Position numbers and translations under genes: made by a program. Below, piece by piece: positions 5,444 through 10,100 of a DNA stretch of 10,100 nucleotides (position 1 is its first letter; each line of letters starts with the position of its first letter). The notes beneath the pieces were generated by a model. The model did no database searches. It was not told the origin of the DNA and saw only the letters and a program-made list of their open reading frames with translations. The stretch spans positions 1 through 10,100 of the IMG/VR virus record IMGVR_UViG_2693429634_000014. One strand, 5' to 3'. The stretch comes from a virus. Taxonomy: Duplodnaviria > Heunggongvirae > Uroviricota > Caudoviricetes.

Positions 5444-8400
5444 TCAGCTGATACTGATGCCTGCGGTGGCTTTCTTCATCACCACAACCAGCAAATCGCT
5501 GATACTTGCTGTGGGATACCAGTTATTCACCAGCCATGCTGATACCGAAAACTCCAGCGTCATGTGACCGTGACCGGCAGGCATATCAATAACGCCACTG
5601 TAAATCAGCGTATTATCCAGCGCGGTACGGTTATAAATTTCAGCACCGTTTTTCCGCACTATCAGACGGCATGAGGAGTAAATATCAGTATGCTCTCTCT
5701 CATGCTTAGCGCCACTGAATGCCACCGCCGGAATAACAATCTGCCGGTCAAACGGCTGATCGTCATAAACCCTGACGGTAATGGTCCCTGATGGCCACCG
5801 CTCCGGTGCACGGGAGTCCCGGGGGAAAGCTTTGCCCACTGTTTTAACGAGATCGCCTTCAATCTGGTTGGCGGACAGTTTTCCCAGAACCCGACAGTTC
5901 TCGTTAATCGTGACGTTGTTGAGCGTCCCGGAGTTCGCATTCACGTTACCGCTAATATCGGCATTTTTCGCCGTCAGCCGCCCGTCCGGTGTCAGGGAAA
6001 ATGCCGGAGGATTACCGCCGCTGGTAATGGTGGGAGCCGTCAGGCGTTTCAGGAACACGTCGTTCATGAATATCTGATCGCCCTGACCAACAAACATCGG
6101 CTTTGTGTTGCCATTCGCAGGATTAATCATCGCAATCCTGTCTGCCGCCAGCAGCACCTGACTCTGCATTCCTGCTGGCGTATTCTCAATACCGGCACCG
6201 ATACCCGCAATATAAAGGCGTCCGTCCTTCATCTGTTGCAGCTTCACAGCCCACATGCTGTTCAGATTATTATTTGTATCAACCTGAACCTTCTGTATCT
6301 GCTGAATTGCCGCACTCTGGTCTTCCAGTTTCTTATTGACGGTCTGCGTGATTTCATTGCTGACATCCTTAATGGACGTCCTGATTTCAGCCAGGTCAGG
6401 CGCAAGCTGACCGTTATCAATCTGCGTCCACAGCTCCTGAGCCAGATGGGTTTTCCCTATCTCGCCTTTGAAAAAATCCAGATAACCGGATGCATCATCA
6501 CTCGGCTGACCAACAGCCTCCACGAATGCCGATTTGCCAACGGTGTTCACACTGCGAACGTAAAAATAATAATCATGGCCCGGTTTGATATTGATACTGG
6601 CGGCTATCCAGTACAGCCCCGTGCCAAGATAGCGCGCTGTGGTTTCAACCTTCCTGATATCGGTAATCCGCTTTTCCGAAAACCAGAACTCAAACTGTAC
6701 CGTCGGGTCATAAACGGCAAGATGCGGCGTGGCGGTTATCTGAAAATAGCCCGGCGTCAGCTCAATCCGCGACGGCGCTGCCGGTGCGGCAATCCGGAAC
6801 GATACCGACGCCGGATCGCCCAGCTGTCCCCACGCATTTACCGCCCGGACCGTCAACATGTAACGCCCCAGCGCCAGCTGCCTGAAGCGGTATGTGGTTT
6901 CCGTCGTCCGGGCCGTGCTGACCAGCCGCTCACTGCCATCGTCCGCTGTCACGGTCAGGCGAAGCAGGAAGCTCACGCCCTTCACCACCTTCGGCGTGTC
7001 CCAGCGGGCCAGTACCTGATACTCCCCGCTGTCTGCGGTGACTTCGGCAGTCAGGTGCTGCACCGCTGGCGGCGTGACACCATTCACCGTGCCGCTCTGG
7101 TCGCCGTCAAAGTGCGCCCCGTTATCCACGATGGCTTCTTTTTCCGGTACATGCTGCACGGCGGTGATGGCATACGTGCCGCCATCGTTCTCACGGATAC
7201 TCACGCAGCGGAACAGGCGCTGGCGCAGCGTCGGCAGCTTCAGCCCCCACACGCTGTATTCGGCAACGCCGTCAGGAACACGGCTCACTTTCACCTTCAC
7301 GCCGTCGGTGACGGACTGGACCTCCACGCTGACCGGATTCCCCTGTCCGTCAACCAGGCTTATCAGCGTGGTGCCGGAGGATGGCAGCGTGATTTCACGG
7401 TCGAGCGTCAGTGTCCGCGTCTGGCTGTTCACCGCCAGCACGCGCCCGCCGATGCTGATACCGGCATAGTCATCATCACAGATTTCAATGACATCGCCCG
7501 GTACATGGCGAAGCCCTTCTGCACCCACGCTGAAGTCCACGGTCTGCGTTTCCAGCAGCTCCGTTTTAATCAGCCACAGCCCGGCGCGGTGTGCCTGCCC
7601 CCGGCTGGTACAGCCAAAGGCATCCATCTTCGTGACGTTACGACCGTAACGGGCAATGGCCTGCGTATCTTCAACAAGCTCTGTCGCCGTCTCCCAGCCG
7701 TTATCCGGGTCAATCCAGTTCACCTCAACGGCATTATGGCGGTCCTTCAGGGCGCTGAAGCTGTAGCGGAACGGCGCGCCATCATCCGGCATCACCACAT
7801 TACTGCGGTTATAGGTCCACACCTTATCCGACGGTCGGTCCTGCACGAACGTCAGCGTCTGCCCGTTCCATACCGGCATACAGCGCATCGCCGAACAGAA
7901 ATCACTGAGCACATCCCACGCCTTACGCTGTGTGGTCAGGTAAGCGTTACAGGTGATGCGCGGCTCCGTGCCACCAAAGCCATCCGGCACTGACTGGTCG
8001 CAGTACTGGCCGATGACATACAGCGCCCATTTGTCCACATCCGCCGCACCAAGACGCTTCCCCATGCCGTAGCGTGGATGGGTCAGCATATCCCACAGAC
8101 ACCAGGCCATGTTATTGCTGTATGCTGGCTTAAACGTTCCGTCCCAGATACCGCTGTATTGCCGAGTCTGCGGGTTATAGTTCGACGGCACCTGCAGAAT
8201 ACGCCCGCGCAGATGATAATTACGGCTCACCTGCTGGCTGCCGAACTGCTCCGAATCCACCTGTACGCCGACCAGTGCCGTGTTCGGGTAGCACTGTTTC
8301 ACATCGATGATTTCGGTGTATGACGACCAGAGCGTTTTGTTCTGCAGCTGGTCTGTGGTGCTGTCCGGCGTCATCCTGCGCATCCGGATATTGAACGGGC

Positions 8401-8923
8401 GCGGCGGCAGGTTACCCACCACCACCGATGCTAGATACTGTGAGGTGGTTTTGCCTTTAATGGTGATGTCTTTTTCCGTCACCCAGCCACCATTACGCTG
8501 TATCTGAACCAGCAGGCGGACTTCCGACGGATTCCGGTCCCCCTTTGAGGTGGTTTCCACCAGTGCCTGCACACCGAAGGTAAAGCGCAGACGGTCGATG
8601 TTTGCCGACGTGATGGTCCGGGTAATCGGCGTGTCGTACTTCACTTCCGTACCCAGCACCGTCTCGGAGCCGGAGGATTCAAATCCCTCCGGCGGTGTCT
8701 GCTCCTGCTCACCGGCCCGGAACACCACCGTGACGCCGGATATATTGGTATTCCCCTCACTGTCCAGCACCGGCGTACTGTTCAGCAGCACGCTTTTTAA
8801 TCCATCCACCGGACCTTCAACCGGCCCTTCGCTGATGGCATCGATCACACTCAGCAGCTGCGTGGACTTCAGGTTGTCCTTCGCTTCGCGCGGGGTATGC
8901 CCCTTACTGCTTCCTTTACCCAT
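5444..8923 (-). CDS. J: Host specificity / central tail fibre protein J (tip attachment protein), 1159 aa
   Basis: Translation begins [34 protein letters not shown]... and is near-identical to lambda J for roughly the first 820 residues as I recall it, then becomes mosaic and divergent over the C-terminal receptor-binding region. GAGG ribosome-binding site 6 nt before the ATG at 8923. The 585-aa plus-strand ORF 6236..7993 is antisense noise. Confidence 0.95.
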
Positions 8924-8940
8924 TCCTCACACTCCATAAA

Positions 8941-8965
8941 CAACAAAGCCGCCCAAAAGGCGGCT
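8941..8965 (-). terminator. Rho-independent terminator downstream of the lipoprotein gene, just upstream of J (minus strand)
   Basis: Seen in sequence: AGCCGCC (8947..8953) caaaa GGCGGCT (8959..8965); on the minus strand the hairpin is followed by TTGTTGTTTAT. About 25 nt after the lipoprotein ORF stop. Confidence 0.5.
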
Positions 8966-8989
8966 CATGAGTTACGGCAGGATTAACTA

Positions 8990-9328
8990 TTATTTACATG
9001 CATTAACACTATCAGCAAAAATTTTTGGCGTTAATGCTGGTACACGTTCATAAAGAGTAAAACTACTGCCATTTCCTGCTTTTTTGATATCAAGCACAAC
9101 ATCATATCCCCCCATAGCCTGTGGAACTAAAAGGCTTACCTCATTCTCAATAGGAAGGGATGTTATAGGTGTTCCATTACCAGCCCATTGTCTGGATATG
9201 CAGCCTGACAATTCATCAATATTTTTTAATGAATTACCTTCCATTACAGGTTTTCCGGATTTTACGTAATCCAAAGATTTACATCCTGTTAAGGCAATAA
9301 TCGTGCAGAATAAAATCGTTTTGTTCAT
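8990..9328 (-). CDS. Small predicted outer-membrane lipoprotein (112 aa precursor, about 97 aa mature) inserted between tail genes I and J; function unknown
   Basis: Seen in sequence: ORF 8990..9340, with the internal ATG at 9328 giving MNKTILFCTIIALTGC-KS..., a classic signal peptide plus lipobox (L-T-G-C) with Lys at +2 (not the Asp inner-membrane retention signal). Two further Cys in the mature part (SGCISRQW and C-terminal NACK). Gene and flanks are visibly AT-rich against GC-rich tail genes; it has its own downstream terminator. Lambda has no gene between I and J, to my recollection. Confidence 0.6.
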   Translation of the reverse strand: MNKTILFCTIIALTGCKSLDYVKSGKPVMEGNSLKNIDELSGCISRQWAGNGTPITSLPIENEVSLLVPQAMGGYDVVLDIKKAGNGSSFTLYERVPALTPKIFADSVNACK

Positions 9329-9400
9329 ATAGCTAACCAATAGAATAATTATCAGTGTTCGATATAAATATTAAATCAGTTAGAACATGAGTAAATAATA

Positions 9401-10042
9401 TTACCGCCCAATTACCACAACCTGACCACCATCCCCTTCATCTGCCGTGCTGATCTCCTGAGATGCCACACGTGACCCCACGCGCATTTCACCGTACAGA
9501 ACAGGCAGGACATTGCCCTGGGCAACCATGTTATCCAGTGAGGAGAAATAGGTGTTCTGTTTGCCGTTATCCGTTGTCTGTGTACGTGGAGTTTTGGGTT
9601 TAGGGGCCAGCATCTGTGCGACACCACCAAGCGTCATCGCTGCCCCCATAGAAAAGAGAATGTTACTGAAAGCGATACTGATTCCTGGCATCCAGATTGC
9701 CGTAGCAATCAGCGCCGCACCCAGCACTGCCTGAAAAACACCACCACTTTTGGCACCCGCCAGACGCGGTACGATGTGGATCACGGCACCATTTGCCAGC
9801 GGCTCATTAAGACGGGCAGATAATTCGTTTTCGCCTGCATCACGCCCGGCAATGCGCACCTGATACCAGCCCTCATTCAGTTTCTGGCGAAACGCCGGGA
9901 GCTGTGTGGCCAGCGCCCGGATGGCTTCGGCCCCCGTTTTCACACGAAGGTCGATGCGGCGACCAAATCGTTGTAAATCCCCGTAAAGGCAGATGCGTGC
10001 CATGCCTGGTGACGCCAGAGGGAGTGTGTGCGTCGCTGCCAT
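9401..10042 (-). CDS. I: Tail assembly protein I, 213 aa
   Basis: Translation MAATHTLPLASPGMARICLYGDLQRFGRRIDLRVKTGAEAIRALATQLPAFRQKL...KTPRTQTTDNGKQNTYFSSLDNMVAQGNVLPVLYGEMRVGSRVASQEISTADEGDGGQVVVIGR is near-identical to lambda I at both ends as I recall it, with a diverged and shorter central hydrophobic segment. Confidence 0.9.
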   Translation of the reverse strand: MAATHTLPLASPGMARICLYGDLQRFGRRIDLRVKTGAEAIRALATQLPAFRQKLNEGWYQVRIAGRDAGENELSARLNEPLANGAVIHIVPRLAGAKSGGVFQAVLGAALIATAIWMPGISIAFSNILFSMGAAMTLGGVAQMLAPKPKTPRTQTTDNGKQNTYFSSLDNMVAQGNVLPVLYGEMRVGSRVASQEISTADEGDGGQVVVIGR

Positions 10043-10100
10043 TTGTCGGTGTACCTCTCTCGTTTGCTCAGTTGTTCAGGAATATGGTGCAGCAGCTCGC
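9964..10100 (-). CDS. K: Tail assembly protein K, C-terminal fragment (5' end off-window), overlapping the start of I in another frame
   Basis: Seen in sequence: minus-strand frame open from the window edge (…ELLHHIPEQLSKRERYTDKWQRRTHSLWRHQAWHASAFTGIYNDLVAASTFV*), ending at TGA 9966..9964 and overlapping the I start by about 80 nt. Lambda K and I overlap similarly. Identity inferred from position; I cannot confirm the K C-terminal sequence from memory. Confidence 0.5.

Follow-up and report, generated by a model that had tools for sequence, protein, structure and literature searches.

The J protein encoded on the minus strand of this E. coli prophage DNA (the window, all 10,100 nt of the stretch analyzed) is a three-part mosaic in which a lambda/21/434-type body is followed by a phage-21-type shaft and prism and by an Sp15/1A2-type tip. 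The tip is nearly identical to that of gpJ 1A2, a published protein whose receptor has been measured, and this near-identity suggests that OmpC, not LamB, is very probably the receptor of the window tip.

J is a three-part mosaic

J is an intact member of the lambda-type tip attachment proteins (central tail fiber; Table 1), and BLASTP gave 83% identity to lambda J overall. The lambda J gene is J02459 15505-18903 and the protein P03749. The Pfam domains of J, all far above their cut-offs, run in the order FNIII-A_GpJ, Phage-tail_3, Ig_J, Ig_J_second, Phage_Tail_Tip, Ig_GpJ_C, corresponding to the lambda-type succession of hub, two FNIII/Ig domains, helical shaft, beta prism, and Ig-like receptor-binding domain. 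E. coli TB354 carries an identical gene, annotated as gpJ (WP_053893783.1). The gene context is likewise of the lambda type: I (9401-10003), J, lom, and stf (3399-4718) are in the window, lom lies directly downstream of J as it does in lambda, and genes L, K, and tape-measure were read upstream of J in the identical TB354 locus. The sole departure from the lambda-type order is an additional lipoprotein ORF that separates I from J.

A reading made from the sequence only had flagged positions 5444-6463, which are exactly codons 821-1159 plus the stop. It proposed that J is lambda-like up to about residue 820, breaks following GYLDFFKG, and contains a lambda-like island past the break, and it named alignment with lambda J as the check. 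The alignment bears out this outline. Residues 1-819 are 96.9% identical (794/819) and gap-free; identity falls to 18.6% (13/70) over residues 820-889, which also contain 28 extra residues, reaches 77.7% over residues 890-1010, with 96% in the sub-stretch 951-1000, and is 41.6% (62/149) over residues 1011-1159, so the C-terminal domain is not essentially identical to that of lambda. The divergence that the sequence-only reading saw in the last ~150 residues is thus real, but its phrase "only distantly related" is somewhat overstated: Ig_GpJ_C (PF12421) scores 128 bits over aa 1029-1159 (cut-off 26), and the modeled tip matches the lambda fold with TM scores of 0.75-0.78. A contrast as large as 97% vs 42%, together with the indels, goes well beyond what chance would give, and the same pattern appears in the DNA identities and in G+C content (body, 0.60-0.66; 3′ third, 0.48-0.55).

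At the DNA level, positions 6601-8923 are 95.0%, 95.7%, and 95.4% identical to lambda, 21, and 434, respectively, and just 75.8% identical to VT1-Sakai J. Between ~6480 and 6061, identity is 90-98% to phage 21 and 92-100% to VT1-Sakai vs 2-78% to lambda, and from 5880 to 5444 only VT1-Sakai is similar (92-100%). Phage 21 J (OL657228) is near-identical in body, long shaft, and prism (94-98% from 8923 to ~6060, bar two intervals of 90-92%) but differs in its tip, which is 64% identical. VT1-Sakai (Sp15) J shares the long shaft but differs in its body, only 76% identical in DNA, and is itself split by mutation.

The shaft, which in lambda comprises residues 809-861 (Ge & Wang, PMC11101478), is 95-98% identical in DNA to phage 21 and 92-95% to VT1-Sakai; its two extra blocks are present in all three and absent in lambda and h434. 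The prism is 78% identical to lambda, with an upper part that is 21-like (90-98% in DNA) and a lower part common to all J proteins compared. Relative to the window, lambda J (PDB 8XCK/8XCJ) thus matches in body, domain order, and tip fold, but has a shaft 28 residues shorter and a LamB-binding tip with loop indels.

We propose that the 3′ third of J, the fiber and tip that would choose the host receptor, was put together by recombination from three sources. A lambda/21/434-type body (aa 1 to ~808) would have been joined to shaft and upper-prism sequence of the phage 21 type (aa ~809-950), which exceeds that of lambda by 28 residues. The stretch aa 951-1000, kept in all these J proteins, probably acts as the crossover point, beyond which the Ig-like receptor-binding domain (aa ~1011-1159) would derive from the class found in VT1-Sakai (Sp15), many long-tailed Stx phages, and gpJ 1A2.

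Table 1. J, its parts, and two neighboring genes, in positions of the window
Feature	Positions	Strand	Basis
J (gpJ), tail tip attachment / central tail fiber protein, 1159 aa	5444..8923	minus	intact ORF, translation
Hub domains and two FNIII/Ig domains, aa 1-808, lambda/21/434-type body	6500..8923	minus	96.9% aa identity over 1-819
Alpha-helical shaft (AHS), aa ~809-889, long allele	6257..6499	minus	19% aa identity to lambda
28 residues beyond lambda/434 in two blocks within the shaft (aa 836-856, 860-866)	6326..6418	minus	alignment
Prism of beta sheets (central straight fiber), aa 890-1010	5894..6256	minus	Pfam Phage_Tail_Tip PF09327, aa 872-1000
Conserved junction (aa 951-1000; identity to lambda 96%)	5924..6073	minus	alignment
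Ig-like receptor-binding domain of the Sp15/1A2 class, aa 1011-1159 and stop codon	5444..5893	minus	Pfam, AF2, homology
Predicted distal loop 1, aa 1032-1045, hypervariable with indels	5789..5830	minus	column entropy and model
Predicted distal hairpin 2, aa 1072-1083, hypervariable with indels, contains R1076	5675..5710	minus	entropy, model, alignment
Predicted distal hairpin 3, aa 1096-1109, hypervariable	5597..5638	minus	entropy and model
Predicted distal loop 4, aa 1128-1143, hypervariable with indel	5495..5542	minus	entropy, model, alignment
lom (Ail/Lom outer-membrane beta-barrel)	4777..5376	minus	Pfam Ail_Lom E = 3e-123; TB354 annotation
Low-GC lipoprotein ORF, 112 aa, lipobox MNKTILFCTIIALTG/C, between I and J	8990..9328	minus	translation

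Class and predicted structure of the tip

By tblastn, the tip is 98.6% identical to that of VT1-Sakai, 64% to phage 21, and ~40% to 434, and the tips of long-tailed Stx1a/Stx2a phages and PPompW prophages are 98.6-99.3% identical to it. Of 5426 complete E. coli genomes, 3385 (~62%) contain its class, and so do VT1-Sakai and many Stx phages with long tails. The tips of 434 J and the phi330 type belong to the same family but to a separate class (~40% tip identity). Phi330 uses OmpC (PMC12502783); we considered it as a direct OmpC precedent and dropped it, its tip being of the 434/WGPS6 class and ~40% identical.

We modeled the tip with AF2 from database homologues (mean pLDDT 82). Foldseek matched the model to A8 gpJ (9wca/9wcb, OmpC; TM 0.72-0.76, with 0.76 for 9wcb) and to lambda (8xck/8xcj; TM 0.75-0.78, with 0.78 for 8xcj). 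The best PDB sequence match, ahead of lambda gpJ, was "A8 gpJ 713" (E = 2.5e-128). The entry titles describe 9WCB as [quoted passage not shown] and 9WCA as A8 gpJ 713 alone. This OmpC binder is the best-scoring solved relative of the window tip and has the same fold, but it is 64% identical, with an L1 that is 4 residues shorter and an L2 that is 5 residues longer. In both sequence and fold, the window tip belongs to the Ig_GpJ_C family of lambda, 21, 434, A8, and 1A2.

Column entropy and indels among 26 homologues define four hypervariable segments, which sit at every second turn of the up-down sandwich; at its other end the turns (DQPFD, NG, MPAG) are conserved. We assigned the variable segments to the distal end from strand order rather than coordinates; loop 1, for example, lies between model strands 1025-1031 and 1046-1054, and the up-down order of the strands would place it facing the receptor. 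The four segments agree with the four bottom loops (L1-L4) of the lambda tip, and we infer from the model that they are the contact loops.

The receptor of the tip

In the engineered protein gpJ 1A2 (Brödel et al., Nature 2024, PMC11338833), residues 1-964 of lambda J are followed by a C-terminus that occurs naturally in an E. coli prophage. Lambda residue 964 is equivalent to window aa 992, and the graft point (ADISG/N in the BLASTP alignment) thus falls within the conserved junction that the window also has. Exact 5-mers shared with the 1A2 DNA as printed, read in three frames (Brödel et al. supplement), cover 172 of the last 191 residues of window J, and the count rises to 177/191 after the substitutions R982K, R1076K, and S1157T. 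The printed DNA was available as OCR text with indels, in which 14-19 of the 191 residues are illegible. R982 lies upstream of the graft point; the other two substitutions are in the tip and give the residues that VT1-Sakai has. Over the ~150 legible tip residues, these two are the only differences between the window and 1A2. Protein motifs and six 17-19-nt segments of window DNA had no match in the supplement, where 1A2 is printed as DNA with different codons and with OCR errors. Beyond the equivalent of lambda residue 964, then, window J is nearly identical to the 1A2 donor segment and belongs to the 1A2/Sp15 class. Its sequence is not that of the lambda class of LamB-binding tips: the variable segments differ in sequence and length, and identity over the tip is 41.6%.

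In the published experiments, 1A2 delivers efficiently only with EDL933 OmpC as compared to K-12 OmpC, whereas A8 works with both (PMC11338833). Particles carrying 1A2 transduced 95.6% of MG1655 cells with OmpC-EDL933 (E. coli O157) at an MOI of 26, and 5.2% of wild-type MG1655 (K-12; LamB+, K-12 OmpC) at an MOI of 50 (PMC11338833 source data). Lambda J particles transduced 97.7% of wild-type K-12 at an MOI of 174 and 59.5% at an MOI of 19 (PMC11338833). 1A2 works on many OmpC alleles. Two differences separate the constructs: 1A2 keeps the short shaft and the prism of lambda where the window has the long 21-type shaft, and the receptor of 1A2 was measured (OmpC of EDL933, not of K-12) where that of the window is deduced from near-identity. 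We consider it very likely that the window allele, with R1076, S1157, and the long shaft, would act as 1A2 does.

The sequence-only reading had also concluded that the phage uses a receptor other than LamB. Its conclusion is supported by the 1A2 experiment, not by the divergence argument from which it was drawn. Divergence alone is a weak predictor of receptor, because the tip of phage 21 is about equally far from lambda's and yet its owner is reported to use LamB. Circumstantial support for OmpC use, with K-12 not used, comes from the deposited records of six temperate, ECOR-derived phages whose tips are of this class: each names E. coli C or ECOR13 as host, and none names K-12.

We hypothesize that the tip, as a trimer at the tail end, most likely reaches with its four variable distal loops into the openings of the OmpC trimer. 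It would discriminate between OmpC alleles, accepting the O157/EDL933 type and refusing the K-12 type, and binding would set off the same rearrangement of shaft and prism that opens the lambda tail.

The alternative that weighs most concerns not the receptor but the state of the prophage: J may be a relic in a decaying element that recognizes nothing now and serves only to donate tail modules, by recombination, to other lambdoid phages. We regard this as a serious possibility, though not the expected one. The TB354 copy, 100% identical, has a tape-measure gene annotated as frameshifted, with IS3-family and ISCro1 elements and a truncated EspO gene beside the tail-fiber genes, and IS3-family remnants are found at 851-1656 of the window. 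Against this, J is intact at 1159 aa and has equal length in 4 of 6 other sampled prophages, and the tape-measure gene is outside the window, its frameshift having been read in the TB354 copy alone. The prophage may be defective and J perhaps not in current use. We note that such decay would concern present use rather than what the tip binds, and is thus compatible with an OmpC-binding tip.

It is improbable that the tip instead binds a porin with a specificity unlike that of 1A2, be it other OmpC alleles or OmpF, by way of R1076 and S1157 or the long 21-type shaft. R1076 does lie within the most variable hairpin of the family, where other members carry HERENN, HEKEHT, or HERENS, and porin use has been altered by single substitutions in lambda and phage 21. 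However, a mere 2 of ~150 legible tip residues differ from 1A2, both conservatively (K/R, T/S); many Stx phages with 99.3%-identical tips bear one or other of the R1076/S1157 residues; and the grafted segment, outside which the shaft lies, sufficed for the receptor switch.

Very unlikely, finally, is that the tip still binds LamB, as is reported for the divergent tip of phage 21, whose J has the window's long shaft and prism (90-98% in DNA) and a tip 64% identical, and whose LamB use (reported as native by the Meyer laboratory) means that 42% identity to lambda cannot by itself exclude LamB; the near-identical 1A2 tip, by contrast, reached just 5.2% of LamB+ wild-type K-12, far below the 97.7% of lambda J at its higher MOI, and depends on the OmpC allele supplied.

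As a separate observation, R1076, at the apex of predicted loop 2, might change which OmpC alleles are preferred. In the J family the choice of receptor changes readily: phage 21 is reported to use LamB natively, to acquire OmpC through a single mutation, and to take up OmpC and then OmpF through a few (Meyer laboratory).

The adjoining lipoprotein and the significance of the tip

The lipoprotein ORF between I and J encodes a lipobox signal peptide, has a G+C content of 0.38, and matches phrog_914, a family without assigned function. It had no match in Pfam or PADLOC and no tblastn match among 50,697 phage records, whereas 337 of 5426 E. coli genomes carry it. Among six sampled prophages it adjoins a 1A2-class tip in five and an A8-class tip in one, these two classes being the commonest in any case. 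The sequence-only reading had held receptor choice to be relevant to this gene, a tentative connection. Cor and Llp are receptor-blocking superinfection-exclusion lipoproteins tied to FhuA-binding phages. By analogy, the ORF could encode a superinfection-exclusion factor that masks OmpC from phages with OmpC-binding J tips, although we consider this improbable. If true, lipoprotein and OmpC-binding tip would travel together, matched like a "key and lock-cover".

The tip itself belongs to a common, characterized class, and the finding is real but ordinary; as a discovery it carries little weight, because ~62% of complete E. coli genomes carry the class, the receptor is already known from experiment, and a structure on OmpC exists for a sister class. 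For annotation, its use is that an EHEC or EPEC prophage J with this C-terminus would be described as OmpC-directed and allele-selective, not as "lambda-like, LamB". One tip class rides on two J bodies with a mere 76% DNA identity, and the window is a clean case of lambdoid host-range swapping, with crossover in a conserved stretch that immediately precedes the tip.

Mosaic structure of J

The minus strand of the window carries the distal tail genes of a lambdoid prophage, among them J, which encodes the central tail fibre attachment protein. The sequence-only reading described a J protein that follows lambda up to about residue 820 and then becomes mosaic, a part (5444-6463) that comprises exactly J codons 821-1159 and the stop. 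Aligned to the reference lambda J (J02459), residues 1-819 are indeed 96.9% identical (794/819) and gap-free. Beyond them, identity falls to 18.6% over 820-889, where the window has 28 extra residues. It returns to 77.7% over 890-1010, with the lambda-like island predicted in that reading at 96% (951-1000), and drops to 41.6% (62/149) over the receptor-binding tip, 1011-1159. The last ~150 residues are thus as divergent as proposed, and the C-terminal domain is not essentially identical to that of lambda. At 0.48-0.55, G+C in the 3′ third is lower than in the J body (0.60-0.66), consistent with that third having another origin.

The C-terminal part of lambda gpJ consists of two FNIII domains, an alpha-helical shaft (809-861), a beta-sheet prism and an Ig-like receptor-binding domain, which inserts four loops at its bottom (L1-L4) into LamB (Ge & Wang, PMC11101478). 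Mapped onto these domains, the window's J first diverges from lambda in the shaft, has its lambda-like island in the lower prism and ends with the receptor-binding domain, its final ~150 residues. The Pfam matches (Phage_Tail_Tip, 872-1000; Ig_GpJ_C, 1029-1159, 128 bits) agree with this assignment.

We then compared DNA identities by segment among J of the window, lambda, phage 21, lambda h434 and VT1-Sakai (see table). At this level, J is a three-part mosaic: its body is of lambda/21/434 type, its long shaft and prism are of 21 type, and its tip is of the type found in Sp15, the VT1-Sakai prophage. Unlike the window, lambda and 434 J are without the 28 extra shaft residues. The occurrence of one tip on two bodies just 76% identical in DNA is direct illustration of module exchange at the conserved stretch. 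In VT1-Sakai, whose tip belongs to this class, the J annotation (L005 1475-4947, the VT1-Sakai locus) consists of two overlapping CDSs, 'truncated by a mutation', consistent with reports that this prophage is defective.

Features of the distal tail region and DNA identity of J segments to other J genes
Feature	Position (nt)	Strand	DNA identity
I	9401-10003	-	
Small low-GC ORF (lipoprotein), between I and J	8990-9328	-	
J, 1159 aa	5444-8923	-	
J body	8923-6601		95.0/95.7/95.4% to lambda/21/434; 75.8% to VT1-Sakai
J shaft and upper prism	~6480-6061		90-98% to phage 21; 92-100% to VT1-Sakai; 2-78% to lambda/434
J lower prism	6060-5941		78-98%, all four J genes compared
J tip	5880-5444		92-100% to VT1-Sakai only; 33-83% to phage 21
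lom	4777-5376	-	
Side tail fibre gene, collagen repeats	3399-4718	-	

Receptor of the tip

Tip classes were sorted by tblastn of the last 148 J residues against 50,697 phage records. The window's tip is 98-99% identical to those of VT1-Sakai, Stx2a_WGPS2, JLK-2012, many long-tailed Stx1a/Stx2a phages, PPompW prophages and several ECOR-derived phages; ~58-64% to phage 21 and relatives, some long-tailed Stx phages among them; 42% to lambda; and ~40% to 434, mEp460 and WGPS6. The 450-nt tip has matches in 3385/5426 complete E. coli genomes (at least 95% identity in 2289 records), and is already known and very common. Phage phi330, which uses OmpC (PMC12502783), was considered as a precedent, but concerns the 434/WGPS6 class and so has no direct bearing on the window.

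Brödel et al. (Nature 2024, PMC11338833) joined natural prophage C-termini to lambda gpJ after residue 964. Their chimera A8 uses OmpC of both MG1655 and EDL933, and 1A2 gives efficient delivery only with EDL933 OmpC. In the source data, 1A2 reaches 5.2% at MOI 50 on wild-type MG1655 (LamB+, K-12 OmpC) and 95.6% at MOI 26 on MG1655 with OmpC-EDL933; lambda J reaches 97.7% at MOI 174 and 59.5% at MOI 19 on the wild type. As measured on the chimera, the 1A2-class receptor is OmpC, allele-selective, and not LamB.

The 1A2 gene is printed in the supplement of that paper as recoded DNA with OCR indels, which we read across three frames. Exact shared 5-mers cover 172 of the last 191 window J residues, or 177/191 after the changes R982K, R1076K and S1157T, and the gaps that are left fall at OCR frameshifts. 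R982K lies upstream of the graft point, K being lambda's own residue; VT1-Sakai likewise carries K1076 and T1157. Of the two differences from 1A2, R1076 is placed at the tip of the second predicted hairpin. This match assigns the window's tip to the 1A2 class. The receptor-switching graft corresponds to residues 993-1159 (nt 5444-5947); as this segment is enough, the divergent shaft is not needed for specificity.

We therefore consider it very probable that the window's tip binds OmpC rather than LamB. The earlier proposal of a receptor other than LamB gains its support from near-identity to 1A2, not from distance to lambda; divergence alone does not predict a new receptor. The remaining doubt is the allele preference of the window's exact tip variant. 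All six ECOR-derived phages with this tip class (PhiR5_1, R55_1, R46_1, R47_1, R49_2 and R40_1) have E. coli C or ECOR13 as deposited host, and none K-12, in circumstantial agreement with the failure of 1A2 on K-12 OmpC.

The closest solved relative by sequence is 'A8 gpJ 713' (9wca/9wcb, E = 2.5e-128), with lambda gpJ ranking behind; 9wcb is titled 'Open state of A8 gpJ 713 central tail fiber with OmpC G17 from E. coli EDL933'. Residues 985-1159 were modelled with AF2 (mean pLDDT 82, 26 database homologues), and Foldseek aligned the model to 9wcb (TM 0.76, 64% identity) and to lambda 8xcj/8xck (TM 0.75-0.78, 48% identity). Among the 26 homologues, variability and indels are concentrated in 1032-1045, 1072-1083, 1096-1109 and 1128-1143. 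The model's up-down strand order makes these every second turn, all on the same side of the domain; opposite them lie conserved turns (DQPFD, NG, MPAG). By topology rather than coordinates, the four variable segments would correspond to lambda L1-L4.

The lipoprotein gene and the surrounding prophage

The ORF between I and J (112 aa, 38% G+C) begins MNKTILFCTIIALTG followed by C, a typical lipobox. RefSeq annotates 84 codons in E. coli TB354 (28 too short) and 112 in other genomes. It matches phrog_914, a family of unknown function; it had no Pfam or PADLOC match, nor a tblastn match among the 50,697 phage records. In 337/5426 E. coli genomes it occupies this place between I and J; homologues with 49-58% identity occur in Kluyvera, Klebsiella, Enterobacter and Jejubacter. 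A Cor/Llp-like superinfection-exclusion role is a lead only. The ORF adjoins a 1A2-class tip in 5/6 sampled prophages and an A8-class tip in one (O55:H7 CB9615); both classes bind OmpC but are commonest anyway, so this is no evidence for a lipoprotein-tip link.

Window 916-10100 is 100% identical to the chromosome of TB354, from chicken meat, except for TB354's ISCro1 insertion, and the TB354 copy of J is annotated gpJ. This IS66-family element (TB354 locus L002, 5373-7988) splits a small tail-fibre C-terminal ORF and is absent in the window, at about 3260-3270, which makes a close relative of TB354, and not TB354 itself, the source of the window. Window 1-915 has no match to TB354 at this locus. 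The prophage may be defective and J mainly recombination stock: the TB354 annotation records a frameshift in the tape-measure gene, and the fibre genes there have IS elements beside them. The J ORF itself is intact and equals in length J in 4/6 other sampled prophages.

The side tail fibre gene includes a 64-67% G+C stretch rich in alanine, serine and glutamate with collagen-like (G-x-y) repeats; long ORFs on the opposite strand or in other frames (3264-4022, 3629-4489, 4001-4345) most likely result from this composition. Beyond the side tail fibre gene come an NleB2-like effector gene and IS3-family remnants. The former, within a 33-37% G+C island, encodes an NleB-family type III effector arginine glycosyltransferase (326 aa, 1971-2951, minus strand). 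NleB- and NleC-like genes likewise follow stf in the h434 region of lambda h434 imm21, which makes this cargo position an old and shared one. In the IS3-family element (851-1656, minus strand), orfA (1330-1656) is intact and the orfB ORF (851-1330) ends early. This remnant and a partial EspO gene (about 1712-1891, plus strand, transferred from the TB354 annotation) point to decay at this end of the prophage.

Variation in the tip family

Within the 1A2 class (5444-5893, minus strand, and six sampled prophages, L006-L011), differences are few and cluster in predicted distal loops: HEREHT/HERENN/HEKEHT/HERENS, AGHGH/AGRGH/AGSGV and LVNNW/WVNGW/LVNDW. The pattern resembles diversifying selection against OmpC alleles. 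Phage 21 J has the window's shaft and prism in common, with a tip 64% identical to the window's. LamB is reported as the native receptor of phage 21, with OmpC and then OmpF use gained by few mutations; that report concerns a laboratory stock, and the J compared here (OL657228) may not be that stock's. The J tip family moves among LamB, OmpC and OmpF.
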